This document shows positions 10,552 to 41,423 of a stretch of 64,000 nucleotides of DNA, one piece after another. This DNA is from a bacterium. GTDB lineage: Bacteria; Patescibacteriota; Microgenomatia; Levybacterales; UBA12049. Location: the NCBI GenBank assembly GCA_021777565.1, contig JAJYDJ010000004.1, positions 34,077 to 98,076 on the forward strand, written 5' to 3'. Position numbers and translations under genes: made by a program. Position 1 is the stretch's first letter; each line of letters opens with the position of its first letter. Below the pieces are notes generated by a model. It had not been told where the DNA came from. It searched no databases and saw only the letters and a list, made by a program, of their open reading frames with translations.

Positions 10552-10600
10552 GATGAGGATCCACTTCCCCCCACTTCCTTGCCGGATCCTCCTCAATTTT
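10552..10600 (+). terminator. candidate intrinsic terminator downstream of the M16 peptidase gene
   Basis: Inverted repeat GAGGATCC...GGATCCTC with a ~21-nt loop that holds a CACTTCC x2 direct repeat, followed by AATTTTTTT. Confidence 0.4.
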
Positions 10601-10855: not shown

Positions 10856-10926
10856 TGCCGGATCGTCTAATGGTAGGACAACGGACTCTGAATCCGTTTA
10901 TCTTGGTTCGAATCCAGGTCCGGCAG
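10856..10926 (+). tRNA. tRNA-Gln (anticodon CTG)
   Basis: Folded by hand. Acceptor TGCCGGA/TCCGGCA (7 bp), D-stem GTCT/GGAC with loop AATGGTA, anticodon stem ACGGA/TCCGT with loop CTCTGAA (U33, CTG, A37), variable TTAT, T-stem CTTGG/CCAGG with loop TTCGAAT, discriminator G. CCA is not encoded. Confidence 0.8.
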
Positions 10927-12642
10927 CAAGCTTGAAATAGCCTCATCAGAACCACACTTTTGGGTTACTAAATCAATGGAATCGCCAGGTTCGATTGTCT
11001 CCAGAACTTTAATATAGTTTTTCTTCATATTAGATAACACAATCCACGGTTCGTATTGATGTATCGATAAAATCTTATCAGTCAGTGTTAGGTTCGATCC
11101 GAGGGCGTGGAGTATAGCTCGCTTCTGTTCAGTTGTTCCTTTTTTAAACCAAATGTGCGCGTAGGTAGCAAAATTAAATGTCTGCTCACATAGTTCTAAC
11201 CACTCATCAGCGCGTTTATCTGTCTGAGCAACATTGGTGCGCACTTGCTTCTGCTCTTCTAGAAGGTTTGTCTTTTTATGCGTATATTCTTCATCAGTAA
11301 TGAAGCCTTTCAGTCGCATACTCAAGAGCTCATCAAGTTGCTTTTGTACGTCAGTATCTACAGATTGCAAGTTTTTCTTAATCGTAGTTCTTTCATGTAC
11401 TTCGTTCTTATGCAACTCCTGTAACCACTTAATTGCCCACTTACTAAATCCCTCAGGAATAGCAAACTGATCAATCAAGGCATTTACTTGTTCTTCAAAT
11501 TGAGTGACCACAAGGGAAGTTTGTTTGCATTTCTCTCCATCAGCTAACATTTTCTTTGTACAATGAAGCCACGTGTAGTGAAGAATGGTAGGATTTCTCA
11601 TTTCAGCAATCTTTTTTCCACACTGAATGCACTCATCTCTGTCCTGTGCTTTATGGAATTTCGTTTTACATATAGGGCAGATAATCTGCCATTTCTCTTC
11701 CATGGTAATATCACCACCACATTTGCCACACGTCATTTCTCCTGTGTATGCCCATTGTTTAGGTGTCAACCGTCTGTTTGCTTTCTTCCCAAGAAGGACC
11801 TGGATGGTGTCAAATTCTTCCTTTTTCATGAGAGGTTGGAAGTTGGCTGCAAACTCGCCTTCAGCTCGTACGATATGACCATAGTACTTTGGATCAGATA
11901 GTAACTTGTACCATGTACTCTTTGCCAGTGGGTTTCCACCCATTCTTTTTGTTTTTCTTGTGCGATATCCCCACTCATTGTTTAAAATATTTAGTGCTTC
12001 TATTGGTGTATGTGTCTTATTCAGAATAAGGGTAACTGCGTTATGTAGGAGTTGAAAACGATCCTTATCAACTCCCTGTATGTATTCATCGCGGTCATTC
12101 TTTATGTGGACATACCCTTGCGAGAGAGAACCACTCGGAATATACCCTGCTTTGAGTTTTGTTCTATTGCCACGCTTAACAACCTCACTTTTGTCATCAC
12201 TGTCTCTGGTTGCTCTAGTAAATTCATTCATCAAATATTCCTTATCTCGTGGAGAATTTTCAAAAACACCATGGGGAGTAACGACAATCTTTAGCTTTCC
12301 ATCAGACATGAGTTGCGTAAATCTGCCACCATCGGCGTAATTTCTCGCAATACGATTTGGGTGCCAAACCATAACGGCATCGACCTGTCCTTGTTCAATA
12401 AGGTCAATAAGTGCTTGAAATTGTGATCGTCCCATTTTGAAAGCTGATTGTTTTTCTTCAAAAACATGAATCATTGCAAGGGGAAGTTGAAATTTATTCA
12501 CAATATCACTTATTAAATCTTCTTTTTGTCCTTCAATGGAGCGAAGTTGTTTATCTTCATTGTCCTCGGTGGATTTACGAAGATACATACCAAATCTGTA
12601 TGTCTTTAGTTTTTGTTGGAGTGTGTAATCAAAAAATGCCAT
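10867..12642 (-). CDS. large serine recombinase (integrase) of the integrated element
   Basis: 591 aa. N-terminal resolvase-type catalytic domain with YLRKSTEDNE (catalytic Ser), a long recombinase domain and a Cys-rich zinc ribbon (CGKCGG...CPICK...CIQCGK). The last ~20 codons overlap the tRNA-Gln gene in antisense. Confidence 0.85.
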   Translation of the reverse strand: MAFFDYTLQQKLKTYRFGMYLRKSTEDNEDKQLRSIEGQKEDLISDIVNKFQLPLAMIHVFEEKQSAFKMGRSQFQALIDLIEQGQVDAVMVWHPNRIARNYADGGRFTQLMSDGKLKIVVTPHGVFENSPRDKEYLMNEFTRATRDSDDKSEVVKRGNRTKLKAGYIPSGSLSQGYVHIKNDRDEYIQGVDKDRFQLLHNAVTLILNKTHTPIEALNILNNEWGYRTRKTKRMGGNPLAKSTWYKLLSDPKYYGHIVRAEGEFAANFQPLMKKEEFDTIQVLLGKKANRRLTPKQWAYTGEMTCGKCGGDITMEEKWQIICPICKTKFHKAQDRDECIQCGKKIAEMRNPTILHYTWLHCTKKMLADGEKCKQTSLVVTQFEEQVNALIDQFAIPEGFSKWAIKWLQELHKNEVHERTTIKKNLQSVDTDVQKQLDELLSMRLKGFITDEEYTHKKTNLLEEQKQVRTNVAQTDKRADEWLELCEQTFNFATYAHIWFKKGTTEQKRAILHALGSNLTLTDKILSIHQYEPWIVLSNMKKNYIKVLETIEPGDSIDLVTQKCGSDEAISSLLPDLDSNQDKRIQSPLSYH

Positions 12643-12659
12643 AGGTAATAAAAAATAGC

Positions 12660-18122: not shown

Positions 18123-19097
18123 TTAAGGGTGCAATTTCCCAGGATTTCTTGGAAACAAAATCGAATCTTCAACTGAATTAAGTTTAAGTAATTTACATAT
18201 AAAACGATCAATCCCCAAACAAAATCCTGCGTGATCTGGTGCACCAAGTCTAAATATGTCTAAAAAATCATCATAATCATGAACATTAAGTTTTTTTTCT
18301 ATAATTCTTCGAGTTAAAATATCTATATTTGTTTCCCGTTGTGCTCCTGATGCAATTTCCCAACCATCGAAAATAAGATCAAATGTTGCCGTATATTTAT
18401 CGTCTTTTTTCAATTTAGTATAGAATTTTTTTACAACAGATGGATATTGAGTAACAAAGAAGATGTTTACACCTTGTGAACTCATAATCTCACCCAATTT
18501 CTTTTCCCTTTCATAGCCTGGATCTTCACCCCATGTTATGTCAATATTGTGTTCTTGTAAAATTCTTATGGCTTCATCATATGTTAAACGTAATAGAGGG
18601 TAAGTGATATTTAAGGGTTTTATTATCTTATGATATTTTTCTACTGTTGCTGTTAACACATAATTTATAATATCTTCGAGAATAACCATTATTTCATTTT
18701 CATCTTGAATATATGCTATTTCTACATCTAATCCCCAAGATTCCACAGAATGACGAGGAGTAACAATCTCATTGTCTCTCCAAAACTGTGCAAGACTATA
18801 AATTTTAGAAAAACCCGCTGCCATTAGCATCTGTTTATGTAATTGTACTGATTGAATTAGATATGAATCCTGACCATAGTAATTTAATTTAAATAGTTCT
18901 TTAGTAGGATCTTTTACTGGATCTGTTGGGACAGAAACTATACTAGGCAAGTGAACTTCTAGAAAGTCTCTCTGATATAAAAATTGTCGTACTTTTTGGA
19001 AAACATATGATCTTATCTCAAAGGTTGTCCTTTGCTTAGGCAAAGACAAATATCGAAGTCTTTCAATAGTTGTTGAATTATAAGTTTTATTTGTCAT
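18123..19097 (-). CDS. standalone class IIb aaRS catalytic-core paralog, AspRS lineage, no anticodon-binding domain
   Basis: 324 aa. Motif 1 FLEVHLPSIV, AspRS-type QSVQLHKQMLMAAGF...FWRDNE, motif 3 GAPDHAGFCLGIDRF. Lacks the N-terminal OB fold. Clearly paralogous to the C-terminal half of the 23597..25597 product (KKFYTK...FDLIFDGWEIASGAQRETN vs KKFYTK...FDVIICGWEFVSGAVRETN). Confidence 0.7.
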   Translation of the reverse strand: MTNKTYNSTTIERLRYLSLPKQRTTFEIRSYVFQKVRQFLYQRDFLEVHLPSIVSVPTDPVKDPTKELFKLNYYGQDSYLIQSVQLHKQMLMAAGFSKIYSLAQFWRDNEIVTPRHSVESWGLDVEIAYIQDENEIMVILEDIINYVLTATVEKYHKIIKPLNITYPLLRLTYDEAIRILQEHNIDITWGEDPGYEREKKLGEIMSSQGVNIFFVTQYPSVVKKFYTKLKKDDKYTATFDLIFDGWEIASGAQRETNIDILTRRIIEKKLNVHDYDDFLDIFRLGAPDHAGFCLGIDRFICKLLKLNSVEDSILFPRNPGKLHP

Positions 19098-19228: not shown

Positions 19229-20263
19229 ATGGAGACACATGTACCCAAAAAGAAAAACGAGATGTATATCTTTGTTATCGTTCCCGCCCTTAATGAAGAA
19301 ACGGAATTGCCAAAATTCTTCGATTCATTACGAGAACAAAAAACAGATTTTTCTTTCTCAGTTGTTATTATAGATAATAATAGTACAGATAATACTGCTG
19401 CTGTTGCTCGTTCTTACAGCGCTACTGTTATTTCCTGTAAAGAACAAGGTATCGGTCCTGCACGGGCTACAGGAGTGAATTATGTACTTGAAAAGTTTCA
19501 AGAAGATTGTGCTAACTTGCTCATTGTTCAACTCGATGCTGATGAAGTTCTTGATCCAGGATATATACAAGCAGTAGGGGAAGCATTTATTGCAAATCCA
19601 CATCTCATGGTATCTGTCGGCCCAACTATTTATACATTTATGTCAGATACCGAGAAAAAAATTATCTCTACAGGGAAAGAATTTCGCAATACATTCCAAA
19701 TCGAAGAAATGAAAGATCTTTTTTCTAGGCATAGCAGAGATATCGCAGATTATATTATCACACCAAGGTGTAGACATCTTATTGGTGGCAATACTGCATA
19801 TCGTGCAAGTGTCTTTTCTCTTCCTCATGTTGGATATTCGCAAGGAAACGGATGGGAATCGGTAGTTATCTCTGTCCGCCTTCACCAAGTGATTAGTGAC
19901 GACGGATTTGGCTTTGTTCCAGAACAAAAAGTTTATACGTCCGCACGCGCATACAGCGATGAGGAAGGGATTATAACAAAAGAAAAGATTGAACATATTA
20001 AAAAGCTCGGATACATTCCTCCATTTAAGCTTCACCAAGCGATTTCCCCTGCTGAAACAGCAAAGAATCTTATTCATGAGATTGAAAAGGAATTATACCA
20101 ACTTGCAGAAGATGAATATGTCTCAGAAATTATTTACTACACAGAAGGGACTCATCCTCCTGATGAGGTTACGGAAAAGCGTCTATTGCCTGCTCTTCAT
20201 GCAGCGACAAAGCAAGAAATTTCAAATAAATTTGTGGTTATTGGAAAGAGAAAATTCTCCTAA
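19229..20263 (+). CDS. family 2 glycosyltransferase (GT-A fold) with C-terminal extension
   Basis: 344 aa. N-terminal IFVIVPALNEE...SVVIIDNNSTDNTAAVA and DAD (a DxD motif). Confidence 0.7.
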   Translation: METHVPKKKNEMYIFVIVPALNEETELPKFFDSLREQKTDFSFSVVIIDNNSTDNTAAVARSYSATVISCKEQGIGPARATGVNYVLEKFQEDCANLLIVQLDADEVLDPGYIQAVGEAFIANPHLMVSVGPTIYTFMSDTEKKIISTGKEFRNTFQIEEMKDLFSRHSRDIADYIITPRCRHLIGGNTAYRASVFSLPHVGYSQGNGWESVVISVRLHQVISDDGFGFVPEQKVYTSARAYSDEEGIITKEKIEHIKKLGYIPPFKLHQAISPAETAKNLIHEIEKELYQLAEDEYVSEIIYYTEGTHPPDEVTEKRLLPALHAATKQEISNKFVVIGKRKFS

Positions 20264-21105
20264 AGAGATAAACCTTCGTACTGAGCAAACTCTTCTTCAG
20301 CAAGCTTTCTTGCTTCCTTAGGATCAGATAGAGAAGTGGAGGTAAAATATTCTGTCAAAATGGTGAGGCATCTCCCCTTGTTAAAAAACGGTGTTTCAAT
20401 TAAACGTGAAATATCTGAAATATCATGAGTCCTTATTGTTTCTCCTTTCTTTCTGTACGTTGGTACTAGTCGTATTTTAGCAGCAGCAATTTCTTCAGGA
20501 ATTGGTACTTCAAGAGTAATTTTCTCTCCATTTGCATTGTGTATATATCCTTGAGTAATTTCCATAGTAAATACTTTTCCATTTTTCCCAATAAGCTCTA
20601 CTTTATTTTTATATCTCTGTGGATTTGGGCTTCTATATACATGAATGTTTAATTGCCTTGGTAAGTCTGGAAAATCAGGATCGTTTGCACGGAGCCAGAA
20701 CCAATGAGGAGATGTGGGAAGACTGTACCAGCTGAAAGATGTTTGTGCATTGAGATAGGTCAATATTTTTTCTAAAACTTCATTCTCTTCCTCGTACATT
20801 GGAATAACTAAAGCAATGTCTATATCATGATGAAATCGTGTTATTTTATGTGAAATAAGTGAGTCTACTGCATAGCCAAATTCAAGAAGTGTTCTTAGTG
20901 AAAACTTTGGGCAAAAACTTTTTAGAATCAAAGAAATTTTTATATCTTCATCTATTCTCAGGTTTTCTTTATAAATTTTTGAATTCAAGTTCATAGCGCA
21001 CTTGATATAGTTTAATATATTGATATTCAAAAACAAAGTATATAATATATGAAATATGTCTAGCCAAGAAGCTCCACAAAATAATACAGTCCCAAGCGCA
21101 GACAC
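20260..21105 (-). CDS. hypothetical protein, possible nucleotidyltransferase fold
   Basis: 281 aa. GYAVDSLISHKITRFHHDIDIAL loosely fits the hG[GS]x9-13DhDh pattern of minimal NTases. The true start may be the internal Met at ~20994, since the annotated N-terminus overlaps ORF 21056..21334. Confidence 0.35.
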   Translation of the reverse strand: MSALGTVLFCGASWLDIFHILYTLFLNINILNYIKCAMNLNSKIYKENLRIDEDIKISLILKSFCPKFSLRTLLEFGYAVDSLISHKITRFHHDIDIALVIPMYEEENEVLEKILTYLNAQTSFSWYSLPTSPHWFWLRANDPDFPDLPRQLNIHVYRSPNPQRYKNKVELIGKNGKVFTMEITQGYIHNANGEKITLEVPIPEEIAAAKIRLVPTYRKKGETIRTHDISDISRLIETPFFNKGRCLTILTEYFTSTSLSDPKEARKLAEEEFAQYEGLSL

Positions 21106-21451: not shown

Positions 21452-22846
21452 ATGCTTGAGAGAGTATATATTAGTGATTTAAAGAATTATATTGGTCAAG
21501 ATGTTATTGTTGATGGTTGGGTTGATGTAAGGCGTGACCATGGTAAACTCATCTTCATAGATCTACGTGATAAATCAGAAAAAGTACAAATAGTATTTCT
21601 ACCTACTCACCAGGAAGCGCATGAAACTGCAAAGTCTATCCGTTCAGAATGGGTACTGAGAATAAAAGGAAAAGTGAATGCAAGATCGGAGAAACTTGTA
21701 AATAACAATGAATTTAATGGCACATTAGAAATTGAAGCATTGAGTGTTGAAGTATTGAATAAATCAGAAGCGCTTCCCATAGATATAAGCACAGATGGTC
21801 TTGAAATCAACGAAGAGAATCGACTTCGGTATAGATACCTTGACCTAAGAAGAAAACGTATGCAAAGAAATCTTCGCATACGCCATAAGATCATAAAGAA
21901 AATGAGAGATTATCTTGATGAACGTGATTTTATTGAAGTAGAGACTCCAATTTTGACAAAATCGACTCCCGAAGGTGCAAGGGACTATATTGTCCCTTCG
22001 AGACAATCTAAAGGAAAATTCTACGCACTACCACAATCACCACAACAATATAAACAACTATTGATGGTTGCTGGGATTGAAAAGTATTTTCAGATTGCGC
22101 GATGTTTTAGAGATGAAGATACCAGGTCAGATAGACAGCCAGAGTTCACACAAATGGATCTTGAAATGAGTTTCGTAACACAAGAAGAATTAATCAACTT
22201 GAATGAAGAGATGTTGATTCATATTGTGCAAACGCTTATACCAGAAAAAAAGATCCAACAAATTCCATTTCCTCGCATTACATATAAAGAGGCTATGGAG
22301 AAATATCATACGGATAGACCAGATATTAGAGAAAATAAAGATGATCCGAACCTTCTTGCGTTTTGCTGGGTTGTTGATTTTCCATTCTTCGAAAAAGCCG
22401 ATAATGGCAGTTGGACATTTACGCATAATCCTTTTTCTGCCCCTAAACCAGAATATATGAATGATTTGCTTATGAAAACAAATGTAGAGAATATTATAAC
22501 AACTCAGTATGATATTGTTTTGAATGGGTACGAAATCGGTGGTGGAAGTATTAGGAATCACAACCCAGAGGCATTAAAAGCTGTGTTTGAAATAATGGGA
22601 TACCCAGAAGATCAAATCTCAAAGAATTTTGGCCACATGTTGCAAGCGTTGTCATACGGTGCTCCACCACATGGAGGAATTGCTTGGGGATTAGATCGTT
22701 TCGTTACCCTCCTCTTAGGAGAAGACTCTATTAGAGAGGTTATTCCTTTTGCTAAAACAGGTGAAGGAAAAGATCTTATGATGAGTTCTCCCTCGGAAGT
22801 CTCTACTGCCCAGCTACAGGAGTTGAATATAAAAACTTTAAAATAA
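21452..22846 (+). CDS. aspS: aspartyl-tRNA synthetase, archaeal/eukaryal type (no GAD insertion), island copy
   Basis: 464 aa. N-terminal OB anticodon-binding domain (VIVDGWVDVRRDHGKLIFIDLRD), motif 1 FIEVETPILTKSTPEGARDYIVP, QSPQQYKQLLMVAG, motif 2 FRDEDTRSDRQPEFTQMD, motif 3 GAPPHGGIAWGLDRF. Confidence 0.85.
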   Translation: MLERVYISDLKNYIGQDVIVDGWVDVRRDHGKLIFIDLRDKSEKVQIVFLPTHQEAHETAKSIRSEWVLRIKGKVNARSEKLVNNNEFNGTLEIEALSVEVLNKSEALPIDISTDGLEINEENRLRYRYLDLRRKRMQRNLRIRHKIIKKMRDYLDERDFIEVETPILTKSTPEGARDYIVPSRQSKGKFYALPQSPQQYKQLLMVAGIEKYFQIARCFRDEDTRSDRQPEFTQMDLEMSFVTQEELINLNEEMLIHIVQTLIPEKKIQQIPFPRITYKEAMEKYHTDRPDIRENKDDPNLLAFCWVVDFPFFEKADNGSWTFTHNPFSAPKPEYMNDLLMKTNVENIITTQYDIVLNGYEIGGGSIRNHNPEALKAVFEIMGYPEDQISKNFGHMLQALSYGAPPHGGIAWGLDRFVTLLLGEDSIREVIPFAKTGEGKDLMMSSPSEVSTAQLQELNIKTLK

Positions 22847-22848
22847 AT

Positions 22849-23595
22849 ATGAAGACTGTACTTATTACTGGTGCGAGCAGTGGAATTGGAAAAGCATGTA
22901 GCGAAAAGTTTGCTTCTTCAGGATACCAGGTAGTAATGTGTGCGCGAAGAATAGATAAGTTACAAAGTATATGTCAGGAGTTCCCCGATAAACAGACCTG
23001 CATCTATCAAGTAGATGTTTGTAATAAAGAAAACGTTGAGTCTATGTTTGAAGATCTTAAGAAGAAAAAGATCACAATAGACATTGTTGTTAATTCTGCT
23101 GGATTAGCATTAGGATTAGATGATATACGGGATGCAAATACTTCAGACTGGGATAGTATGATTGATACGAATATCAAGGGTCTGTTATATACTACGCAAG
23201 AATTCTTGAAGCAAACGAACAAAGGACATGTGGTTAACGTAGGATCAATTGCTGGTATTTATGCGTACGCTAAAGGGACAGTATATGCTGCAACAAAATC
23301 GGCTGTGAAATTTATTAGCGATGGGTTACGTAAAGAATTGGTCAGCAATGACATTAAGATTACTAATATACAACCAGGTTTAGTAGAAACAAACTTTAGT
23401 AATGTGCGCTTCAATGGTGATAAGAAGCGAGCAAAAGATGTTTACAAAGGTATCCAGGCACTCACTGGAGATGATATTGCAAACATAGTATTTTATGTTG
23501 TGAATACACCAGAACATGTTCAAATTACTGAACTGACTGTTATGCCCCTACATCAAGCTTCTGTAGATACAGTATATCGTTCTCAAGATCAATAA
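22849..23595 (+). CDS. SDR-family NAD(P)-dependent oxidoreductase (YdfG / serine-dehydrogenase-like)
   Basis: 248 aa. TGASSGIGKA (TGxxxGIG), NSAG, catalytic YAATKSAV (YxxxK). It starts 3 nt after the AspRS stop and ends 2 nt before the next gene. Confidence 0.85.
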   Translation: MKTVLITGASSGIGKACSEKFASSGYQVVMCARRIDKLQSICQEFPDKQTCIYQVDVCNKENVESMFEDLKKKKITIDIVVNSAGLALGLDDIRDANTSDWDSMIDTNIKGLLYTTQEFLKQTNKGHVVNVGSIAGIYAYAKGTVYAATKSAVKFISDGLRKELVSNDIKITNIQPGLVETNFSNVRFNGDKKRAKDVYKGIQALTGDDIANIVFYVVNTPEHVQITELTVMPLHQASVDTVYRSQDQ

Positions 23596-23596
23596 T

Positions 23597-25597
23597 ATGT
23601 TGATTAAAGTTACATGCGCATCAATAAACCTTCAAAAGCTTAATGAAGATGCAATGGAGATGCTCTCAAATGCATCTTTAGCGAATGATGCAAGTACCAT
23701 AGCGAAAATAAAGGATGAACTTGGCTTTCCTGTCGAGCAACTTGCAGTTATTGAGAAGTGCAATGCTGTAATGATTGTTATTGCATATTATGGTGAATAT
23801 TTGGAGAACTACATTCATAGTAGACTATTGGACACATGGGATAAATTATCTCATGGCGGTGTTATAAACTCAGTGAGGCATATAAAGTTTTTTGACAATA
23901 GGGATGCAATCCACTACTTAGGAGAATGTGTGCTTGGATTGCACAGTGTAACTCTAGGAGATTCTCAGGTACTTGCTCAGGTAACCAGCGCTTTACAAGT
24001 GGCAGCACAAATTCAACCCAGTAATCCTACATTTTCATTTATGGCAAACTGGTTTAAAGATTTATCGAGTGAAGTAAAGTTACGTACATCACTTTTTGAT
24101 GGAAATATTTCGCTCGAAAGGATAGCAACTGATTTTATCGCTGAGCATATACAAAAGGACGGAAAAGTCACTATTGTTGGGTACGGTAGGTCAGGCAAGC
24201 TTGTCTCAAAAATTCTATCGGAGGAATTACACTACAATATACAAATTGCTAATCGGACACCGAACATACTTAAACACCTATCACCTAAGAGCGGCGTTAT
24301 TCCCGTTAGTTTCCAAGATTACAATAAAATTCTTGATGTAGATTGTGTAGTTATTGCGCTTTCTTCAAATGGAGAAACACAAAAATACTGTTCAGAGATG
24401 CTTTTAATTTGCGATGAATTAAAAAAGAAACCAAAACTATTTATTGATCTCGCAACTCCTCCATTAATGAGTAAAAATACTGTTCCTTATCTTATCAATA
24501 TCGAAGACTTATCTACAGTTGCACATAAAAATCTTGATAAACGCATTTCTGAAGTTGCGAAGGCAAGAGATATTGTTAATAAGTCAAGTAACACGTTTAT
24601 CGAAACGCTTAATAAAGAGATAAGTGCATTATTGCTTGATGAACAGAGAGAAAAAGTAAATTGCAAAATAGATCCTGTCAAGCTTGAATTGTTTAAATTT
24701 AGAAATGATGTGTATAAGTTCATCAGAGATTATCTTGATAAACTAGATTTTGTTGAGGTGAATACACCTTGTATTGTAGGTGTATCGACGGACCCACCAA
24801 AGGTTGATAAAGGAGGAACTCTTGATGTCTCTTGGCCTGGTGGGAATAATGCATTCCTCCGTCAATCAAACCAGCTCTATAAGCAGATGATTGTTGCTTC
24901 GGGTTTACCAAAAATTTATGAAATTGGACCATTCTGGCGCGCAGAGACAACTCCGTCTTATCGTCATTTACAAGAATCAATCGGCCTTGATGTAGAATAC
25001 AGCAATCCTAAAAATTTGGAAGAAGTTTATAGGCTTGCTTATGAAATAATTCTTGAAGTAAAAAATCACATTTTCAAACATCATGATATTAAGCGAAAAA
25101 ATCTACTCCTTCCTCGCTTTGATTCATTACCTATCTTCACGTATGAGGAGGCTGTAAAACTGTTGAATTCAAAGGGATACGCATTGGCGTTTGGAGAGGA
25201 TATTGGATTAATGGGTGAGGCGAAATTAGGACAGATTGTTCGACGAGAATACAATAGTGATGCACTTATTATCAAAGATTACCCTGACACAATCAAGAAG
25301 TTTTATACCAAGAAAAGCAAAGGTGGGCTAACTGAAACTTTTGATGTTATTATCTGTGGATGGGAATTTGTGAGTGGGGCAGTAAGAGAAACTAATAGAG
25401 ATCTTATTGAAAAATCAATGAAGTTATCGGGGATCAATATTCGCAACTACAATTTCTATCTTTCTATCGTAGATGGTGCAGTCCCGCACGGAGGATTCTG
25501 TCTTGGATTGGATCGACTTGTGGCAAAACTCCTTGACCATGAGATGATTACTGATGCCGTAGTCTTCCCACGATCATTTAAGACACTTATTCCGTAA
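23597..25597 (+). CDS. fusion protein: N-terminal glutamyl-tRNA reductase (HemA)-like catalytic + NADPH-binding domains, C-terminal AspRS-lineage class II catalytic core
   Basis: 666 aa. N-terminal blocks line up with GluTR: EKCNAVMIV (cf. TCNRxE, the catalytic Cys), HYLGECVLGLHSVTLGDSQVLAQV (cf. HLxRVASGLDSxVLGExQILGQV), VTIVGYGRSGKLV...IQIANRT (cf. VLVIGAGEMG...IANRT), LFIDLATPP (cf. LVDIAVPRD). The C-terminal ~300 aa has aaRS motif 1 FVEVNTPCIV, QSNQLYKQMIVASGL, FWRAETT and motif 3 GAVPHGGFCLGLDRL. No OB anticodon-binding domain. Confidence 0.7.
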   Translation: MLIKVTCASINLQKLNEDAMEMLSNASLANDASTIAKIKDELGFPVEQLAVIEKCNAVMIVIAYYGEYLENYIHSRLLDTWDKLSHGGVINSVRHIKFFDNRDAIHYLGECVLGLHSVTLGDSQVLAQVTSALQVAAQIQPSNPTFSFMANWFKDLSSEVKLRTSLFDGNISLERIATDFIAEHIQKDGKVTIVGYGRSGKLVSKILSEELHYNIQIANRTPNILKHLSPKSGVIPVSFQDYNKILDVDCVVIALSSNGETQKYCSEMLLICDELKKKPKLFIDLATPPLMSKNTVPYLINIEDLSTVAHKNLDKRISEVAKARDIVNKSSNTFIETLNKEISALLLDEQREKVNCKIDPVKLELFKFRNDVYKFIRDYLDKLDFVEVNTPCIVGVSTDPPKVDKGGTLDVSWPGGNNAFLRQSNQLYKQMIVASGLPKIYEIGPFWRAETTPSYRHLQESIGLDVEYSNPKNLEEVYRLAYEIILEVKNHIFKHHDIKRKNLLLPRFDSLPIFTYEEAVKLLNSKGYALAFGEDIGLMGEAKLGQIVRREYNSDALIIKDYPDTIKKFYTKKSKGGLTETFDVIICGWEFVSGAVRETNRDLIEKSMKLSGINIRNYNFYLSIVDGAVPHGGFCLGLDRLVAKLLDHEMITDAVVFPRSFKTLIP

Positions 25598-25606
25598 TCA
25601 TATACT

Positions 25607-26596
25607 ATGCAACAAATAATTATTGATGCACATACTCATGCTGCGGGTGTCGACTTTTACAATCTTTTTATCCCCCGCAAGCCACTTGTACAAAGTACCA
25701 GAGACTTAATTTTAAAGATGGACTTATATGGCATAGACTACTCAATAGTTATGCCTATGCCATTTGCAATGTATTATGATCCTAGGAAAGTTAGTCAGGG
25801 AGAGTGGGCTCTCAGTGGTCTAGAAGAATTTCCTTATCAAGTATTGAATACCACATTACTTTATGAGTCTCAGGAATATTCCGATCGGCTATTTCCCTTT
25901 ATGGCAATAGATCCTCGTACAAAAGTCGAGGAGCAAATACAATTTCTTACACAACAAGTCGAGAGAAAAAAGATCTATGGTCTTAAGTTACATACATTAG
26001 CAACTAATTCTTCTGCAACTGTGTTGAGTGATAGTTTATTTGCTAAATTCATGAAAAAATATAACTTACCGATTATTATACATGCGGGAAGAGATACAAC
26101 AACATCGCCTATTCATGTCTTGAACTTTGCAAAACAAAACCCAGAAATTCGAGTATGTATCGCACATCTTGCAGGTTTTGACAATTCTGTACTTAAGCAG
26201 TCACTTGAGATTAAAAATGTTTTCTTTGATACTTCACCTTTTTTATCTCATTGTAAATTTGCTGTAGATGATATATCGTCCTATGTCTCATCGGATCGAT
26301 TTAATACGAACTATGATGATCCTGTAAATGCACTTCTAGAACTTTCTACCTATCTTAAATCGAAACTTCTATGGGGATCAGATGAGCCATGGACAAGTGT
26401 AAGCAATCCAAAAGGGGCAGCATTATCTTCATTTTCATATAAAGATGAATGTAGTATTCTAAATCAACTAAACTCTATGAACCATGAAAACACAGTGAAT
26501 GAAATTGCATATACTAATTCACTTAGATTTCTTTATGGTGATGCTTCCCTTAGGCTTACTAAAAAAGCTAATAAGCATCATAAGAATGATCACTGA
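25607..26596 (+). CDS. metal-dependent TIM-barrel hydrolase (amidohydrolase-2-like)
   Basis: 329 aa. N-terminal IIIDAHTHAAGVD (HxH metal ligands), later His/Asp residues (IIIHAGRD, IAHLAG, WGSDEPW). Confidence 0.55.
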   Translation: MQQIIIDAHTHAAGVDFYNLFIPRKPLVQSTRDLILKMDLYGIDYSIVMPMPFAMYYDPRKVSQGEWALSGLEEFPYQVLNTTLLYESQEYSDRLFPFMAIDPRTKVEEQIQFLTQQVERKKIYGLKLHTLATNSSATVLSDSLFAKFMKKYNLPIIIHAGRDTTTSPIHVLNFAKQNPEIRVCIAHLAGFDNSVLKQSLEIKNVFFDTSPFLSHCKFAVDDISSYVSSDRFNTNYDDPVNALLELSTYLKSKLLWGSDEPWTSVSNPKGAALSSFSYKDECSILNQLNSMNHENTVNEIAYTNSLRFLYGDASLRLTKKANKHHKNDH

Positions 26597-26681
26597 ATCT
26601 CCCTCAAACTTTGCTGCACTCAATTCTGGGGCATCTGTACTAAAAAGATTCTTTCTGTCATAGAAATGGTATACTCACTGT

Positions 26682-27218
26682 ATGCAAACACTTCAGAGAT
26701 ATCGGATACAGATCACTGGTCCTTCAGGAAGTGGGAAGTCATATTTTGCTAAACAGCTAGAAAAAATGGGGTATCCTGCTATTGATGCAGATAATGTTAA
26801 CAAATTGGGGATGTGGGTAAACAGTCAAGGCGAAATAGTAGAATACAATCACGATGGTGACCTACAGTGGTTGCAAGAACATAAGTGGGTGTGGGATATA
26901 AAATTTCTTCTTGAATATCTACATACAAAACAAAAAGTTATTTTATTTGGCGGTGCATCAAATGAACATGAAACAGCAAATGAGTTTGATTATGTCTTCT
27001 ATTTAAAACTGCTAAAGGATGAAATTTTACAAAACCTCTTGAGAGAAGAAAGAACAAATCCATATGGTAAGACTGATATACAGCAAATATATGCTTCTTC
27101 AAAAATTGATCTATTTTATCAGAACATTCCTCACGAATGGACTCGACTTGTGTCGCGTAATCCAAAAGATTTGATTTCTGAGATAGAAGAGTATTTACAA
27201 GCAAAAATTTTATTATGA
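26682..27218 (+). CDS. P-loop NTPase, small-molecule/nucleoside kinase-like
   Basis: 178 aa. Walker A ITGPSGSGKSYFAKQL at the N-terminus. Size and layout resemble small kinases. Confidence 0.5.
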   Translation: MQTLQRYRIQITGPSGSGKSYFAKQLEKMGYPAIDADNVNKLGMWVNSQGEIVEYNHDGDLQWLQEHKWVWDIKFLLEYLHTKQKVILFGGASNEHETANEFDYVFYLKLLKDEILQNLLREERTNPYGKTDIQQIYASSKIDLFYQNIPHEWTRLVSRNPKDLISEIEEYLQAKILL

Positions 27219-27247
27219 TCTTGTAAGGATCAGTTGTTTATTTTTAT

Positions 27248-27724
27248 ATGGATACAACATCAAACAAACCATATCGTCTTGGTGTAAACGCAATCGTTAT
27301 TGACCAGGATAATAACTTTCTTTTGGTGCAAAAGAATGGGTATAAGGATAATGAGTGGAACTTCTTAGGTGGTGGCCGAGAGGAAGGAGAGACATTGGAG
27401 CAGAACTTGTTTAGAGAGTTGAATGAAGAAATTGCTATAGAGGAATCAGATTTCGAAATGGTTGGCGTAAGCTCGCATAAAATTGAATATGATTTTCCAG
27501 CAGATACTGTTTTAAAAATTCATGGTGGAAAATATCGTGGGCAATCGTATGACCAGGTTATTCTCAGGTTTATTGGAGACAAGGCCAAGCTTGTTTTCTC
27601 TACAGGAGAATTTAGGACCCATAAATGGGTCAAGGCAGATGAATTAGAGAAGTGCTTGATCTTTCCAAACCAGTACAGCAATCACAAGAAGGCAATTGAT
27701 GAACTTATGCCAGGAATCTTGTAA
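27248..27724 (+). CDS. NUDIX hydrolase
   Basis: 158 aa. Nudix box GGGREEGETLEQNLFRELNEEIAIEE (GX5EX7REUXEEXGU). Confidence 0.75.
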   Translation: MDTTSNKPYRLGVNAIVIDQDNNFLLVQKNGYKDNEWNFLGGGREEGETLEQNLFRELNEEIAIEESDFEMVGVSSHKIEYDFPADTVLKIHGGKYRGQSYDQVILRFIGDKAKLVFSTGEFRTHKWVKADELEKCLIFPNQYSNHKKAIDELMPGIL

Positions 27725-27762: not shown

Positions 27763-28491
27763 ATGAATGATCAAAGTTCAAGAATAGACAAACCGTACTG
27801 GATCAAAACATTACAGCAAGAACTAGTAGAGTTTAGCAGAATAAGAACTATTCTTCTCCACAAAAACCCTACTTACCCATTTTTATATCCTGCTATTGAG
27901 AATGCTGAATATGCAATGGCAAACATTCTTGCATATCTCGAAGGAGTGAATCCTCATCTTGTTCAGTTTGCAGATGATTACTTTGGTAACAGGAATATAT
28001 CTATGCACAGAGAATTTCTCCGTGAGCTTCACACCAATATAGAAGATGGACTCAGTCAAATTGTAGAGCAAAAGCAATTTCCTTTGCTTATTACCAAAGA
28101 GGAACAGGCAAAGAGTATTGTCGAAAGTATTAAGCAAAAGCTTGGAGATACCACAATAATTAGAACAGAGCTGAAGAAGATTCTTAGGCTTGGTGGAATG
28201 TTTCCCACATTTAATGATTATCTCAATACTGTTATAGAAAATATTCCGCTTCCAGAAACATATAGGCATGAATGCAGAATGTATTTTGATGCGTTCAGTA
28301 TCGTAAGAAACAAAATGTCTCATTCCGACATGACACTTTCAGAATCAGAAAAGGAAAAGCTCATTACTGCAAAGTTTGGGAAGATCATCGCTCCAGATGG
28401 AAAAGGCATGCAAATGACTTTTGAAGGGTACAAGCTACTTATTGGTGATGCTATACGCTTTTTTGACCAATTGAATTCACATATGATCTAG
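27763..28491 (+). CDS. hypothetical protein
   Basis: 242-aa ORF with no recognised motif. Last + strand gene before the recombinase remnant. Confidence 0.4.
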   Translation: MNDQSSRIDKPYWIKTLQQELVEFSRIRTILLHKNPTYPFLYPAIENAEYAMANILAYLEGVNPHLVQFADDYFGNRNISMHREFLRELHTNIEDGLSQIVEQKQFPLLITKEEQAKSIVESIKQKLGDTTIIRTELKKILRLGGMFPTFNDYLNTVIENIPLPETYRHECRMYFDAFSIVRNKMSHSDMTLSESEKEKLITAKFGKIIAPDGKGMQMTFEGYKLLIGDAIRFFDQLNSHMI

Positions 28492-28542: not shown

Positions 28543-29034
28543 TTAGCTTGCGAAAACGAAATTAGAAGGCATACAGTATGTAGGGACATGGAAATGTTTA
28601 TCGTTCGAGCCACAAAAAGTTCGAATACTGTCTATGTCCGGCAGCATTCGTGGACTTTGTTCGTACAAAGACTCCAATTGGACTGTCCTATCAATCCCAT
28701 CCACAGGTTCTAACTTATCGTTAATTGCATTTGCCTCTTGGGCAGCGTCTTTTAGTGCTAAAAGTACTTCATCAAGGCGAATTGTTAAAATTTTGTCTTT
28801 TAAAATGAGGTTCGAACCAAGTTTTGCCAGAATATATCGCTTGTCTTCTACCTCTCCCTCGTTAAATCTCTTTAGAGCATCTCTTGCAAAGTCAAATGTC
28901 TCATCGGCTTTAGCCAGCCATTTATTTACTCGTTCTCCTGTGTCATTAAGTAACTCCTCAAGTCTTTGCAAAGGTAAAGATTCCTGTTCCTTCTTTAGAG
29001 GAACAAGCAGAAATCGTAAAAGAAATTGATGCAA
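28543..29034 (-). pseudogene. C-terminal remnant of a second large serine recombinase gene
   Basis: The 163-aa ORF aligns with the C-terminus of the intact recombinase (10867..12642): RVNKWLAKADETFDFA...KRYILAKLGSNLILKDKILTI vs RADEWLELCEQTFNFA...KRAILHALGSNLTLTDKILSI. The catalytic and recombinase domains are absent. Confidence 0.6.
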
Positions 29035-31841: not shown

Positions 31842-31842
31842 T

Positions 31843-37161: not shown

Positions 37162-37162
37162 A

Positions 37163-39901: not shown

Positions 39902-39907
39902 ATTTAG

Positions 39908-41403: not shown

Positions 41404-41423
41404 GTGTACAGGTCCGGCAGCAA
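41404..41423. repeat. second att-core-like copy of the tRNA-Gln 3' end
   Basis: CAGGTCCGGCAGCAA (41409..41423) is identical to tRNA-Gln 10915..10929 (15/15). The copy at 38545 shares a GTGTACA-GTCCGGCAGCA context. Confidence 0.5.

Follow-up and report, generated by a model that had tools for sequence, protein, structure and literature searches.

To our knowledge, the GluTR relatives known so far all act on aminoacyl-tRNA. Asparagine synthetases are known that consist of a truncated AspRS/AsnRS-like core lacking an anticodon domain, and HIT (MccH), S66 (MccF) and GNAT (RimL/MccE) proteins are known immunity enzymes against aspartyl-adenylate mimics. The MccH clade is specialised for aspartamide-adenylate, and most MccH-like genes tested rendered E. 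coli resistant to McC, with two stand-alone Parcubacteria homologues among those cloned, of which only DG742 is named as inactive (PMC7157772). The use of aspartol-adenylate as an AspRS inhibitor is cited in PMC3367201 (its reference 39). Here we analysed a window, by which we mean the whole stretch of 64,000 nucleotides of DNA from a very small, symbiotic CPR bacterium, in which an AspRS gene is followed by a short-chain dehydrogenase (SDR) and a GluTR-AspRS fusion, whose reductase half is of the type found in the haem pathway. The functional unit is best explained as a mobile conserved module consisting of an AspRS, an alcohol dehydrogenase, a bifunctional 'synthetase-reductase' and, usually, a binuclear-type metallohydrolase.

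The gene run and its island

Seven plus-strand genes follow one another, the third of which (23597-25597) encodes the fusion and is given below as its two halves:

21452..22846, plus strand: extra AspRS, ordinary Paceibacteria bacterial type (NF001750, 645 bits against a cutoff of 443)
22849..23595, plus strand: NADP(H)-type SDR, predicted aldehyde reductase (adh_short, 162 bits; Pfam, NCBIfam)
23597..24661, plus strand: N-terminal half of the fusion, GluTR-like catalytic domain (Cys55), NADPH domain and long 'spinal' helix (Pfam, alignment)
24662..25597, plus strand: C-terminal half of the fusion, archaeal-type AspRS catalytic core without anticodon-binding domain (PDB, Foldseek)
25607..26596, plus strand: Amidohydro_2 metal-dependent hydrolase, binuclear type (Pfam; alignment)
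26682..27218, plus strand: small P-loop NTPase, AAA_18, kinase-like, window-specific accessory (Pfam, 32.5 bits against 29.4)
27248..27724, plus strand: NUDIX hydrolase, occasional accessory (Pfam)
27763..28491, plus strand: 242-aa protein, end of the same-strand run (no family match)

The gene calls and the tight operon described in the earlier note are correct, with spacers of exactly 2, 1 and 9 nt at the first three junctions (TAA-AT-ATG, TAA-T-ATG and TAA-TCATATACT-ATG) and gaps of 85, 29 and 38 nt downstream. This spacing suggests that the genes are co-transcribed and translationally coupled. A promoter/terminator scan found no terminator-like site on the plus strand between 21452 and 28491, and since it finds no more sites than in shuffled sequence, we do not treat the scan as evidence. 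Further features of the window are as follows:

10856..10927, plus strand: tRNA-Gln (CUG), island integration site (ARAGORN; Rfam, 63 bits; repeat)
10867..12642, minus strand: large serine recombinase with Resolvase and Recombinase domains, tRNA-proximal island end (Pfam)
18123..19097, minus strand: stand-alone 324-aa AspRS-type core of the fusion subfamily (Pfam tRNA-synt_2, 219 bits)
19229..20263, plus strand: GT2 glycosyltransferase (Pfam; tblastn, phmmer)
20260..21105, minus strand: 281-aa protein, with a homologue that accompanies the fusion in L023/L073 (phmmer, E 6e-36)
28543..29034, minus strand: fragment homologous to the island serine recombinase (clusters with 10867-12642)
41409..41423, plus strand: right copy of a 15-bp repeat, att-like, distal island end (exact match, flanks unrelated)
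61823..63187, minus strand: host housekeeping AspRS, archaeal / non-discriminating type, outside the island (NF003483, 478 bits against a cutoff of 353)

That the run lies in a horizontally acquired island is borne out, and its borders can now be sharpened. The island spans about 30.5 kb, has a GC content of 0.33-0.39 against about 0.43 in the flanks, and is edged by a 15-bp repeat of the tRNA-Gln 3' end, next to the serine recombinase. This exact direct repeat, CAGGTCCGGCAGCAA, occurs at 10915-10929, where it comprises the final 13 nt of the tRNA-Gln and 2 further nt, and at 41409-41423; we estimate the chance of a 15-mer match to a 150-nt region at about 0.02. The island also carries an R-M pair (38882-41017) and glycosyltransferase genes of the GT9, GT2 and GT4 families, and relatives of its recombinase are found near the module in L056 and L075-L077. 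The serine-recombinase island would have brought the module into a Saccharimonadia-like genome at tRNA-Gln.

The AspRS within the island is a true extra copy rather than the sole AspRS, as the Saccharimonadia-like host has its own archaeal-type enzyme, which is intact and 80% identical to Saccharimonadales enzymes. Both AspRS types were found within one genome in two cases, the window and L066. The island copy belongs among thousands of 460-480-aa CPR proteins and carries an OB anticodon domain; the domain search gave no GAD-domain match and the catalytic domain aligns without interruption, which suggests that the insertion domain is missing. The earlier suggestion of a specialised or divergent resistant copy does not hold: the sequence is ordinary, the motifs TPEGARD, QSPQ, FRDED, GGGSIR and GLDR are all intact, and a comparison of fusion-adjacent AspRS copies found no substitution fixed across them. 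The island copy does not represent a divergent "resistant" clade, being nearer to stand-alone housekeeping aspS genes of Paceibacteria type (75% identity) than to any fusion-adjacent copy.

The synthetase-reductase fusion

In the fusion protein of 666 aa, the domain search matched GlutR_N, an NAD(P) domain of Shikimate_DH type and a class II core, and found no anticodon domain. Its earlier description as a GluTR::AspRS-core fusion is upheld, the domain calls and the invariant active sites across 106 members indicating a real, conserved enzyme. Upon alignment to 4n7r and 1gpj, Cys55 falls on the catalytic Cys of GluTR. Among the full-length members, K54-C55-N56, D122, Q124 and R175 are invariant (106/106) and the NADPH-site residues are kept in 101-106 of 106, with GxGxxG and N219-R220 near-invariant (G200 in 101/106, N219 and R220 each in 102/106). 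The N-terminal half is modelled with an AF2 pLDDT of 87.5; how the two active sites lie with respect to each other is not reliable in the model (pTM 0.58).

The best structural matches of the core are AspRS (PDB 3nel/1b8a, E 6e-48), and Foldseek agrees. Residues Q423, S424, Q426, K429, R448, D465, E467, D583, R597 and R640 are invariant in the 106 members, including the Asp-clamp residues K429 and R597 together with class II motifs 2/3. The Mg/ATP-phosphate ligands D583 and R640 are accompanied by E590, kept in 104/106 members, an indication that ATP is really used. In 99/106 members another residue takes the place of the adenine-stacking aromatic in motif 2, and the nucleotide may therefore be handled differently than in a normal synthetase.

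Given the asparagine synthetases among anticodon-less cores, the core might, as in AsnA, activate the beta-carboxyl of aspartate, with the reductase yielding aspartate-4-semialdehyde and the SDR homoserine, a bypass that, in reduced genomes, would stand in for aspartokinase, ASA dehydrogenase and homoserine dehydrogenase. NCBIfam AsnA models match the core at 107 bits, serine and 3-hydroxy-acid dehydrogenases are found in the SDR family, and a PanP / DABA-decarboxylase-like PLP enzyme is encoded in the same island. However, the core scores far better against AspRS (235 bits) and keeps the AspRS-specific Lys of QSxQLYKQ and Arg of SGAxR, which, going by what is established for class IIb structures, hold the beta-carboxylate in place and leave the alpha-carboxyl to be activated. 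As no genes for the ensuing Thr, Met, Lys or DAP steps are linked to the module, and as the bypass would leave both the AspRS link and the immunity-like genes described below unexplained, we consider it very improbable.

The fusion family is small, undescribed and mostly CPR, with nothing on it in the searchable literature. We found 253 homologues, most of them full-length among the matches listed, and the reductase half at E<=1e-30 had only 22 representatives of 1.84 billion. The 324-aa core at 18123-19097, which has neither an anticodon domain nor a reductase partner, resembles the fusion core (37% identity) more than the housekeeping AspRS (29%) and has in common with the former its catalytic motifs and a TDPxK insertion in a loop; similar extra cores are present in L056 and L078.

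Partners of the fusion across loci

Co-occurrence was counted over 33 de-duplicated loci (groups), with neighbours taken within 3 kb for AspRS and SDR. A bacterial-type AspRS lies near the fusion in 19-21 of the 33 groups (18 of the 27 flanked by 2 kb or more on each side), far beyond chance, and about one third of loci are without one. We observed four gene orders: AspRS-SDR-fusion, AspRS-GNAT-fusion, AspRS then split reductase and core, and fusion-AspRS. It could be argued that AspRS is not coupled at all, the SDR and fusion having inserted behind a housekeeping aspS promoter in a Paceibacteria-like donor, with aspS carried along and the downstream genes as unrelated passengers. Besides the ordinary AspRS sequence and the window-specific kinase and 242-aa gene, this would fit the close relatives of the island copy, which lack the module in 4/4 sampled, and the normal aspS position (Trp/TyrRS ... 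ScpA-ScpB-S11) of the AspRS in L005, L007, L045, L047 and L062, where it may be the only AspRS. Yet the link persists through the four gene orders, including fusion-then-AspRS in a 33%-identical clade, the AspRS elsewhere rides with the module inside inverted-repeat-bounded cassettes inserted at tRNA-Leu, and it is kept beside the fusion in the two genomes already having another AspRS. Furthermore, Amidohydro_2 occurs in 11/33 groups, in several arrangements and only where AspRS is present, rendering an uncoupled AspRS exceedingly unlikely.

The SDR, found near the fusion in 17/33 groups, belongs with YdfG, sulfoacetaldehyde reductase and clavaldehyde dehydrogenase, and its nearest solved relatives (PDB 3asu, 4e-56; 3rku, 6ixj, 2jah) use NADP(H) to interconvert small aldehydes and alcohols. 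L015 and L074 lack an SDR; there, an iron alcohol dehydrogenase (Fe-ADH) with no homology to it lies directly upstream of, and overlaps, the fusion. Together these observations strongly support the proposal that the SDR takes an aldehyde to an alcohol. The Amidohydro_2 protein has the signature HxH...K...H...H...D (H9, H11, K127, H159, H187, D259), all six residues being invariant between it and five module-linked homologues, and an MBL hydrolase is present in five AspRS-less groups.

The kinase and NUDIX genes had also been read as suggesting nucleotide or phospho-ester handling. The kinase has no homologue in any other module locus and no PDB match, the 242-aa protein has no homologue in other module loci, and NUDIX occurs in 2/33 groups, recurring next to the module in L049/L079; none of the three is thus a core part. 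On the other side of the run, a homologue of the GT2 gene lies beside a divergent fusion in L023/L073 (40% identity, E 5e-77; tblastn, phmmer); the adjoining 281-aa protein gave no match in Pfam, NCBIfam or PDB.

The link to aspartyl-adenylate and microcin C logic is strengthened by MccH-type HIT, MccF-like S66 or RimL/MccE-like GNAT genes, tightly linked in 7/33 groups (several 4-86 nt from module genes) and absent from this window. The module-linked HIT proteins (3/3) have the MccH-clade motif ExxxxxHxHxK and no HxHxH, the S66 partner is nearer to MccF-type proteins than to true LD-carboxypeptidase, and the GNAT partner has its matches in RimL and MccE. In 389 kb of control loci, a small and taxonomically mixed set, no member of these three families was found. 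The module might accordingly serve resistance or detoxification against external microcin C-like aspartyl-adenylate mimics, the core acting as toxin-binding pocket, Cys55 cleaving the aspartyl-nucleotide bond as MccF does with serine, the aspartyl being reduced and the extra AspRS adding target dose. The target enzyme and relatives of each of the three known McC immunity enzymes co-occur with the module, which is mobile and patchily distributed; the invariant core residues also bind adenylate, and resistance was conferred by most MccH-like genes in the experiments that included Parcubacteria homologues (PMC7157772). Hydrolysis alone would suffice for such a role, whereas the module keeps an NADPH site with hardly any variation, an alcohol dehydrogenase of its own, drawn from two unrelated types, and conserved ATP-phosphate ligands; we therefore regard detoxification as improbable.

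A proposed route and its relation to known systems

Of the earlier interpretation as a whole, the operon, the fusion, the extra AspRS and the SDR step are supported, whereas the kinase and NUDIX as core parts and the resistant AspRS are not. Under the route that we favour, the AspRS-type core of the fusion would bind L-aspartate and ATP to form alpha-aspartyl-adenylate, and the aspartyl would pass to a Cys55 thioester, either directly or via the 3' end of tRNA(Asp), in which case the co-encoded AspRS would charge tRNA(Asp) and keep up the supply. NADPH would then reduce the thioester to L-aspartate-alpha-semialdehyde (3-amino-4-oxobutanoate), and the SDR, or Fe-ADH in some genomes, would turn this product into an amino alcohol, L-aspartol (3-amino-4-hydroxybutanoate). 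Judged from sequence, this series from activated aspartate to alcohol is probable, and the involvement of tRNA is plausible, with slightly better than even chances. Aspartol could finally feed aspartyl-adenylate-mimic chemistry, in the simplest version by being adenylylated in the same core to aspartol-adenylate, whose compound type has a known inhibitory action on AspRS; we hold this last step to be doubtful. The co-expressed AspRS would provide extra target, and Amidohydro_2 or MBL, with occasional MccH-/MccF-/MccE-like and NUDIX proteins, would protect the producer or control the compound. Taken whole, a synthetase-reductase module making an AspRS-blocking compound is a function that we infer tentatively, as possible rather than probable.

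A plain tRNA-dependent route is a somewhat unlikely alternative, in which AspRS would supply Asp-tRNA(Asp), the fusion, as a second known kind of aminoacyl-tRNA reductase, would form aspartate-alpha-semialdehyde, and the SDR would yield an amino alcohol building block, for example for a surface glycoconjugate, rather than an inhibitor, AspRS being linked only as a supplier offsetting the charged-tRNA drain. The use of aminoacyl-tRNA by every known GluTR relative, the conserved catalytic and NADPH residues, the AspRS linkage and the exchange of SDR for Fe-ADH all fit, as do the GT2 and 281-aa genes adjoining the module in the window and L023/L073 and the further glycosyltransferases of the island. 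On the other hand, the glycosyltransferase link is confined to two groups, the module has no dedicated tRNA gene, and the host AspRS could already make Asp-tRNA(Asp). An intact adenylating core beside a complete AspRS is left unexplained, as is the tight MccH-/MccF-/MccE-like linkage.

Compared with microcin C systems, the favoured route to an AspRS-blocking compound differs in its presumed product: MccH is a phosphoramidase and MccF an amidase, and aspartol-AMP has neither bond, which speaks against it. Neither an exporter nor an uptake peptide or MccB-like enzyme accompanies the module with any consistency. Compared with GluTR, the predicted L-aspartate-alpha-semialdehyde is the analogue of the GluTR product, one carbon shorter. 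The Arg of the GluTR TCNR motif is never present in fusion members, in which an invariant Lys instead precedes the Cys, a difference compatible with a shorter acidic side chain.

The operon, its island and the AspRS-type genes

We found that the six open reading frames proposed in the earlier note are present at exactly the positions it gave, all on the + strand, and that a seventh gene continues the same-strand run:

21452-22846, + strand: ORF1, bacterial-type AspRS (NF001750, 645 bits against a cutoff of 443; OB anticodon domain)
22849-23595, + strand: ORF2, SDR
23597-25597, + strand: ORF3, the fusion, 666 aa (GlutR_N, Shikimate_DH-type NAD(P) domain and class II synthetase core)
+ strand: ORF4, Amidohydro_2 protein
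+ strand: ORF5, AAA_18 P-loop protein
+ strand: ORF6, NUDIX protein
27763-28491, + strand: seventh gene of the run, 242 aa

The first three junctions read TAA-AT-ATG, TAA-T-ATG and TAA-TCATATACT-ATG, and the spacers of 2, 1 and 9 nt behind the claim of a tight operon are thus seen directly; the later gaps are 85, 29 and 38 nt. This spacing suggests that the genes are co-transcribed. A scan for consensus promoters and terminators carries no weight, because such sites were no commoner than in shuffled sequence. A defence-system library searched against the window returned only a generic NUDIX match.

The placement of the operon within an acquired island was also borne out. GC content drops from ~0.43 to 0.33-0.39 over ~11-44 kb of the window, and a 15-bp repeat, CAGGTCCGGCAGCAA, which comprises the last 13 nt of a tRNA-Gln gene plus 2 nt, lies at 10915-10929; an exact second copy in the same orientation, between unrelated flanking sequences, lies at 41409-41423. 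A repeat of this kind at a tRNA 3' end is the hallmark of an element that has integrated there. The island bounded by the two copies is ~30.5 kb long and holds every gene of the finding, and it combines the features of a tRNA-targeted integrative island, namely a tRNA gene at its end, a recombinase, flanking direct repeats and deviant composition. An island-free allele of the tRNA-Gln site was searched for and not found. Further features of the island and its surroundings are as follows:

Left edge of the island: tRNA-Gln, adjoining a large serine recombinase
18123-19097: stand-alone core of the fusion subfamily, 324 aa, 37% identical to the fusion core
28543-29034, - strand: 163-aa ORF, partial homologue of the island serine recombinase, between the aaRS operon and a glycosyltransferase run
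38882-41017, - strand: restriction-modification pair (NgoFVII-like endonuclease and C5 cytosine methyltransferase), just inside the right att-like repeat
61823-63187, outside the island: intact housekeeping AspRS of the archaeal/non-discriminating type (NF003483, 478 bits against 353)

The recombinase fragment at 28543-29034 points to an island that may be composite, perhaps made of two elements. A second same-strand run (29689-38350, + strand) encodes GT9, GT2, an HD-domain protein, an unknown protein of 368 aa, a PLP-dependent decarboxylase, an unknown protein of 456 aa, an MgsA_C-like protein and GT4. The best NCBIfam matches of the decarboxylase (33568-35274), to PanP aspartate 1-decarboxylase at 147 and to DABA decarboxylase at 107 bits, fall far short of the respective cutoffs; the run has another aspartate-family-type enzyme amid its glycosyltransferases.

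The window contains four AspRS-related genes: the housekeeping copy, the island AspRS, the fusion and the stand-alone core. The housekeeping enzyme shares 80% identity with its Saccharimonadales counterparts, which makes a Saccharimonadia-like CPR bacterium, equipped with an AspRS of its own, the probable host; this intact copy outside the island excludes the scenario, raised as a possible refutation, in which the island AspRS is the only one of the organism. The stand-alone core shares the loop insertion of the fusion core and has intact motifs; its 442-aa neighbour was considered as a hidden GluTR-like protein and ruled out (hhalign probability 0.2%).

Next, we investigated the island AspRS, which the earlier note had suggested might be a self-resistance copy. 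ORF1 scores above the curated equivalog cutoff, has the OB domain and has intact catalytic motifs. It gives no match to the GAD domain and its catalytic domain aligns in one unbroken stretch, from which we infer that the insertion domain is absent. An AspRS without this domain is, judging from its relatives, the normal AspRS of Paceibacteria-type CPR bacteria: the island enzyme (~464 aa) has thousands of CPR relatives of 457-510 aa, the best matches are 66-75% identical, and the close relatives sampled were stand-alone in 4/4 cases, with neither SDR nor fusion alongside. When 12 fusion-adjacent copies were compared with 118 stand-alone copies, no column was fixed in one set yet absent from the other, and the window AspRS carried the "stand-alone" residue at the top 2 discriminating columns and at 7/12 top columns. 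It retains the full set of canonical motifs and is 75% identical to a stand-alone enzyme (P0122). The idea that the short AspRS forms a specialised partner clade is rejected, since it is the standard CPR form and the close relatives sampled lack the module, and the comparison of 12 with 118 copies gave no sign of a resistance clade either; the claim of a resistant copy therefore did not hold.

The fusion family and its predicted reaction

The fusion belongs to a conserved, undescribed, small and mobile family. We identified 253 homologues, and among the matches listed most are full-length, at 31-64% identity, and come mainly from Patescibacteria MAGs. In an exhaustive search of the reductase half alone against 1.84 billion representatives, only 22 matches were found at E <= 1e-30; about 40 of the 150 matches listed were of fusion length, some were stand-alone proteins of 330-385 aa, and ordinary GluTRs (~420 aa) were frequent, among the matches listed, only from about E 1e-17. 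The stand-alone reductases adjoin a separate core gene (in locus L045 and in L020/L021), hence the reductase and core modules always travel together. A literature search returned nothing relevant on the fusion architecture, on an Asp-tRNA reductase or on the predicted products.

Cys55 of the fusion aligns with the Cys of STCNR in 4n7r, the catalytic cysteine of GluTR. Across 106 full-length members, K54-C55-N56, D122, Q124 and R175 are invariant on the reductase side, and the NADPH motif GxGxxG/NR is nearly so (G200 in 101/106, N219 and R220 in 102/106), within an NADPH-binding domain that is itself present (Shikimate_DH, 43.5 bits; GxGxxG and NRT conserved). On the synthetase side Q423, S424, Q426, K429, R448, D465, E467, D583, R597 and R640 are invariant in the 106 members, and the C-terminal half contains class II motifs 1-3 and the Asp-binding residues, with no tRNA_anti-codon match in the fusion. 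In class IIb synthetases the lysine of QSxQLYKQ and the arginine of SGAxR clamp the aspartate beta-carboxylate; both are kept here, which argues for aspartate as the substrate, with activation at the alpha-carboxyl group. The rival at this point is a route through the beta-carboxyl group, the one that this pair clamps, to ordinary aspartate semialdehyde. Other positions are specific to the family. The Arg of TCNR, which binds the glutamate side chain in GluTR, is A, C, S or G in 106/106 members, and the core has QSNQ in place of QSPQ, a 6-residue insertion (STDPPKVDKGG) in its flipping loop and a substitution of the adenine-stacking aromatic. In an AlphaFold model the domains are confident (pLDDT 87.5) and their mutual placement is unreliable (pTM 0.58), and in Foldseek AspRS structures rank best.

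In the predicted reaction, the synthetase half would activate aspartate, the aspartyl group would pass to Cys55, NADPH would reduce it to aspartate-alpha-semialdehyde, and the alcohol dehydrogenase would convert this to 3-amino-4-hydroxybutanoate (aspartol). This sequence of activation, transfer to Cys55, NADPH reduction and alcohol formation is common to all reasonable readings, and we hold it with moderate confidence. For the passage of the aspartyl group, a route over tRNA(Asp) would be favoured by the AspRS linkage and the GluTR precedent; direct transfer would be favoured by the absent anticodon domain, the intact adenylation site and the existence of AspRS-less loci.

The proposal that the SDR makes an alcohol from an aldehyde gained strong support from two lines of evidence. 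The nearest solved relatives of the SDR are YdfG, YMR226C, sulfoacetaldehyde reductase and clavaldehyde dehydrogenase, all NADP(H) enzymes acting on small aldehyde/alcohol pairs; by sequence the enzyme is an SDR of the broad YdfG group (3asu, 4e-56) and not an orthologue (233 bits to the YdfG model NF007829, below its cutoff of 411). Two divergent groups (L015 and L074) have no SDR; there the gene immediately upstream, which overlaps the fusion, encodes an iron-containing alcohol dehydrogenase. No other observation argues as strongly for release of an aldehyde by the fusion and its subsequent reduction as this exchange of one alcohol dehydrogenase family for an unrelated one at the same operon position. 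Upstream of the divergent fusion in L074 sit two archaeal-type class II synthetase genes with OB domains (2022-4765; 437 and 484 aa; AspRS and/or AsnRS), and that locus has no bacterial-type AspRS.

Gene neighbourhoods, mobility and immunity-type partners

Gene-neighbourhood conservation, a check suggested in the earlier note, was examined in loci pooled from reference genomes, protein look-ups and a metagenome scan and merged at a fusion identity of at least 85% into 33 groups. The following partners occur within 3 kb of the fusion:

Bacterial-type AspRS: 19/33 groups, or 21 with one frameshifted and one edge-truncated copy
SDR: 17/33 groups
Amidohydro_2: 11/33 groups, never without AspRS
MBL-fold hydrolase: 5/33 groups, never with AspRS

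The AspRS was found in 18 of the 27 groups that have at least 2 kb of flank on both sides, and the partners ranked alike when the Pfam domains of 133 neighbouring ORFs were counted in an unbiased census. A rival explanation is that aspS merely hitch-hikes with the module; the AspRS link persists in four gene orders:

AspRS-SDR-fusion
AspRS-GNAT-fusion (L047)
AspRS, then split reductase and core (L045)
Fusion-AspRS with a convergent NUDIX-Amidohydro_2-SDR set (L049, of a 33%-identical clade)

With these frequencies and gene orders, the suggestion of a functional AspRS-reductase-SDR unit was right. The kinase and NUDIX genes had been counted in as well. As a core part the kinase was wrong: the P-loop kinase and the 242-aa gene were seen in the window only, and NUDIX in just one other of the 33 groups. 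A tblastn search with window proteins (E <= 1e-5) had been read to mean that amidohydrolase, kinase and NUDIX are never conserved, which was partly wrong and was corrected because Pfam annotation of more loci revealed the Amidohydro_2 groups and the second NUDIX group. The motif HxH...K...H...H...D, the binuclear-metal signature of the amidohydrolase superfamily, is common to 6/6 aligned Amidohydro_2 partners, including the window copy at only ~20% identity.

Several neighbourhoods differ from that of the window. A small P-loop protein with GPxxxGK[MLT]T (weak AAA_18, E 0.0045) directly adjoins the fusion or a stand-alone fusion-type core in L008/L063 (1555-2115) and L078 (6901-7431); the window P-loop protein was considered as kin of this cluster and has no detectable homology to it. 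In five AspRS-less, MBL-type loci (L009, L010, L011, L013 and L018) the fusion start is preceded, at a distance of ~120 nt, by a conserved AT-rich leader that contains the palindrome TGTTAAGATAATTAACA and may be an operator site. Two loci of this type also have a tRNA-Glu gene (UUC or CUC) in the same orientation as the fusion and ~230 nt upstream (L011, 9673-9745; L013, 9685-9757); as a functional partner we judge it incidental, because it is confined to one lineage (fusions 90% identical) and has its own terminator-like hairpin. In a GC-rich, apparently non-CPR locus (L046, ~2400-10800), a fusion without AspRS stands beside a Condensation-domain protein, a class IV aminotransferase, a GFO_IDH_MocA oxidoreductase and a flavin-monooxygenase-like protein, in what looks like a secondary-metabolite context. 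Directly downstream of the module in L048 (11148-14276) are an AstE_AspA gene, of the aspartoacylase/succinylglutamate desuccinylase family, and a YcaO-nitroreductase fusion. In L075-L077 (~11500-13800), a fusion-AspRS/SDR-Amidohydro_2 module has two further neighbours, an AbiEii-like ATPase (AAA_15/AAA_21) and a serine recombinase relative.

We also observe that the module is mobile. In L004 (6895-12546), the AspRS-SDR-fusion trio is bracketed by ~390-nt inverted repeats, 90-94% identical, with tRNA-Leu 3'-end direct repeats outside them, in this order:

tRNA-Leu, partial tRNA 3' end, ~390-nt repeat arm, small XRE-type HTH gene, AspRS-SDR-fusion
Inverted repeat arm, then tRNA-Leu 3'-end repeat

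Inverted repeats around the trio also occur in L019, L056 (at least 270 nt at 96%), L057 and L020 and not in the window; the repeat arms gave no Rfam match, and in L056 and L075-L077 the module has serine recombinase relatives close by. In L066, a bacterial-type AspRS stands beside the fusion and an archaeal-type AspRS follows directly. From these cassettes, L066 and the window it follows that the AspRS belongs to what moves and that at least two genomes end with two AspRS types. An extra copy of the target synthetase is thus found in the window and L066, whereas the linked AspRS is at the housekeeping position in several other genomes: in L005, L007, L045, L047 and L062 it lies in the usual Trp/TyrRS ... 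ScpA-ScpB-S11 synteny, which also surrounds a module-free aspS in L042, and it may be the sole copy there. Given the inverted-repeat cassettes and the two genomes with both AspRS types, the reading of AspRS as merely a resident housekeeping gene is too simple.

HIT, Peptidase_S66 and Acetyltransf_3 GNAT genes are tightly linked to module genes in 7/33 groups, often 4-86 nt away:

HIT: 24 nt before AspRS (L048), 86 nt after the fusion (L058), and in L074
Peptidase_S66: 15 nt after the fusion (L064), 4 nt from an extra stand-alone core (L056), and in L054
Acetyltransf_3 GNAT: between AspRS and fusion (L047), and two copies in L058

The linked HIT proteins have ExxxxxHxHxK in 3/3 cases and HxHxH in 0/3, and the S66 partner is a far better match to MccF-type proteins than to true LD-carboxypeptidase. 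The GNAT partner matches MccE and a group of RimL acetyltransferase structures (1s7k, 1z9u). None of the three families was found in 389 kb of control loci, a small and taxonomically mixed set, and none in the window. The motif ExxxxxHxHxK defines the MccH clade, specialised for the aspartamide-adenylate warhead of microcin C (McC), and processed McC is acetylated by MccE and cleaved by MccF (PMC7157772). Most MccH-like genes tested gave E. coli McC resistance; two homologues from Parcubacteria were tested, of which only DG742 is named as inactive (PMC7157772). A detoxification module is a rival reading of these neighbourhoods.

The putative end product and its relation to known systems

The reading that covers most observations is that the pathway would serve aspartyl-adenylate-mimic chemistry. 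In its simplest form the same core would adenylylate the alcohol to aspartol-adenylate, a compound that PMC3367201 mentions, by way of its reference 39, as an experimental AspRS inhibitor. The adenylate-mimic reading explains why an AspRS sits in both the operon and the cassettes, why relatives of all three McC immunity enzymes turn up, why a metallohydrolase (Amidohydro_2 or MBL) recurs, and why NUDIX and P-loop genes appear now and then. Several findings weigh seriously against its last step: the AspRS shows no divergence, the bonds cut by MccH and MccF do not occur in aspartol-AMP, no exporter is linked, and the immunity-like genes are only occasional. The aspartyl-adenylate logic put forward earlier is plausibly right, with the McC-immunity-type genes of 7 groups in its favour and the ordinary AspRS against it. 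A rival is a simple metabolic pathway that depends on tRNA and yields a building block, perhaps one for a glycoconjugate, and in its favour the GT2 and 281-aa genes of the window are shared with two further loci, L023/L073.

Combined into one, the adenylate-mimic reading would describe a mobile CPR cassette with a self-contained synthetase-reductase at its centre, the first aminoacyl reductase outside GluTR and the haem pathway. The end product would be a natural aminoalkyl-adenylate (aspartol-AMP-like) inhibitor of AspRS and, as the work of an aaRS-derived enzyme, would open a new class among natural aaRS inhibitors; in this full form we consider the reading unlikely. In such a cassette tRNA(Asp) might be a swinging arm between the two active sites of the fusion, the co-encoded AspRS and the MccH-, MccF- and MccE-like, Amidohydro_2 or MBL enzymes would provide protection, and the inhibitor could act against hosts or competitors or throttle the translation of the cell itself.

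To our knowledge, GluTR is the sole aminoacyl reductase of this type and is known only as the first step of haem/chlorophyll synthesis, and CPR bacteria, judging from their genomes in general, would not be expected to make haem; none of the genes seen near the module belongs to the haem pathway. Here the catalytic machinery of GluTR is joined to an aspartate-activating core and recurs with the AspRS of the cell and an alcohol dehydrogenase. If the predicted chemistry is true, the fusion would represent a new reduction of an amino acid carboxylate in which an aaRS core replaces the NRPS/CAR adenylation domain and possibly tRNA the carrier protein, giving a new aspartate-derived metabolite. If the McC-immunity link is functional, CPR episymbionts would hold a natural AspRS-directed nucleotide inhibitor with a matching resistance set. 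The link to the module may also explain the "stand-alone" MccH genes of Parcubacteria (PMC7157772). Three or four recombinant proteins would suffice to put the hypothesis to a direct test.

Compared with GluTR/HemA (1gpj, 4n7r), the fusion has the nucleophilic Cys at the same place of the N-terminal domain (xCNx), the GLxS..G(D/E)xQ(I/V)..Q motif, the GxGxxG/NRT NADPH domain and the long helix after it, and the predicted chemistry is alike, from acyl-thioester through hydride transfer to an alpha-amino aldehyde. It differs in having a class II synthetase core where GluTR has its C-terminal dimerisation domain, in an invariant Lys before the Cys while all members lack the TCNR Arg, in scoring 91.6 bits to the GluTR family model TIGR01035 (cutoff 209.55), and in its partner, an alcohol dehydrogenase, and predicted aspartyl instead of glutamyl substrate. 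GSA aminomutase is a class-III aminotransferase, and among the linked genes no aminotransferase or haem-pathway family was matched.

Archaeal/eukaryal-type AspRS (T. kodakarensis, 3nel/1b8a) is the best match to the fusion core in sequence and fold; motifs 1-3, the Asp-clamping Lys and Arg and the Mg/ATP ligands are kept, whereas the fusion lacks the OB anticodon-binding domain, is joined to a reductase and scores 235 bits to the model NF003483, below its cutoff of 353. The truncated class IIb paralogues (AsnA-type 1nnh; EpmA/PoxA/GenX) have likewise lost the anticodon domain and give their adenylate to a non-tRNA acceptor, a precedent for tRNA-independent use of the core, but the fusion matches them far more weakly than AspRS, and we know of none that is fused to or paired with a reductase.

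Carboxylic acid reductase (CAR), alpha-aminoadipate reductase (Lys2) and the terminal reductase domains of NRPS proceed from ATP adenylation through a thioester to NADPH-dependent aldehyde release, often followed by an alcohol dehydrogenase. The predicted overall logic of the fusion is the same as a functional analogy, with unrelated parts: those systems use an ANL adenylation domain, a phosphopantetheinyl carrier and an SDR-type R domain, whereas the fusion uses a class II aaRS core and a GluTR-type Cys reductase without a carrier domain, and its carrier arm, if there is any, would by this analogy be tRNA.

With McC-type and other aaRS-inhibitor clusters, the module shares the encoding of the target enzyme, AspRS, and the close linkage, in the same 7 groups, of MccH-type HIT, MccF-like S66 and MccE/RimL-like GNAT relatives. 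Unlike clusters with a resistant copy, its AspRS is not divergent, and it has no linked MccA peptide, MccB adenylyltransferase or MccC exporter; its predicted warhead would come from an aaRS-derived enzyme and reductases instead of from peptide adenylation.
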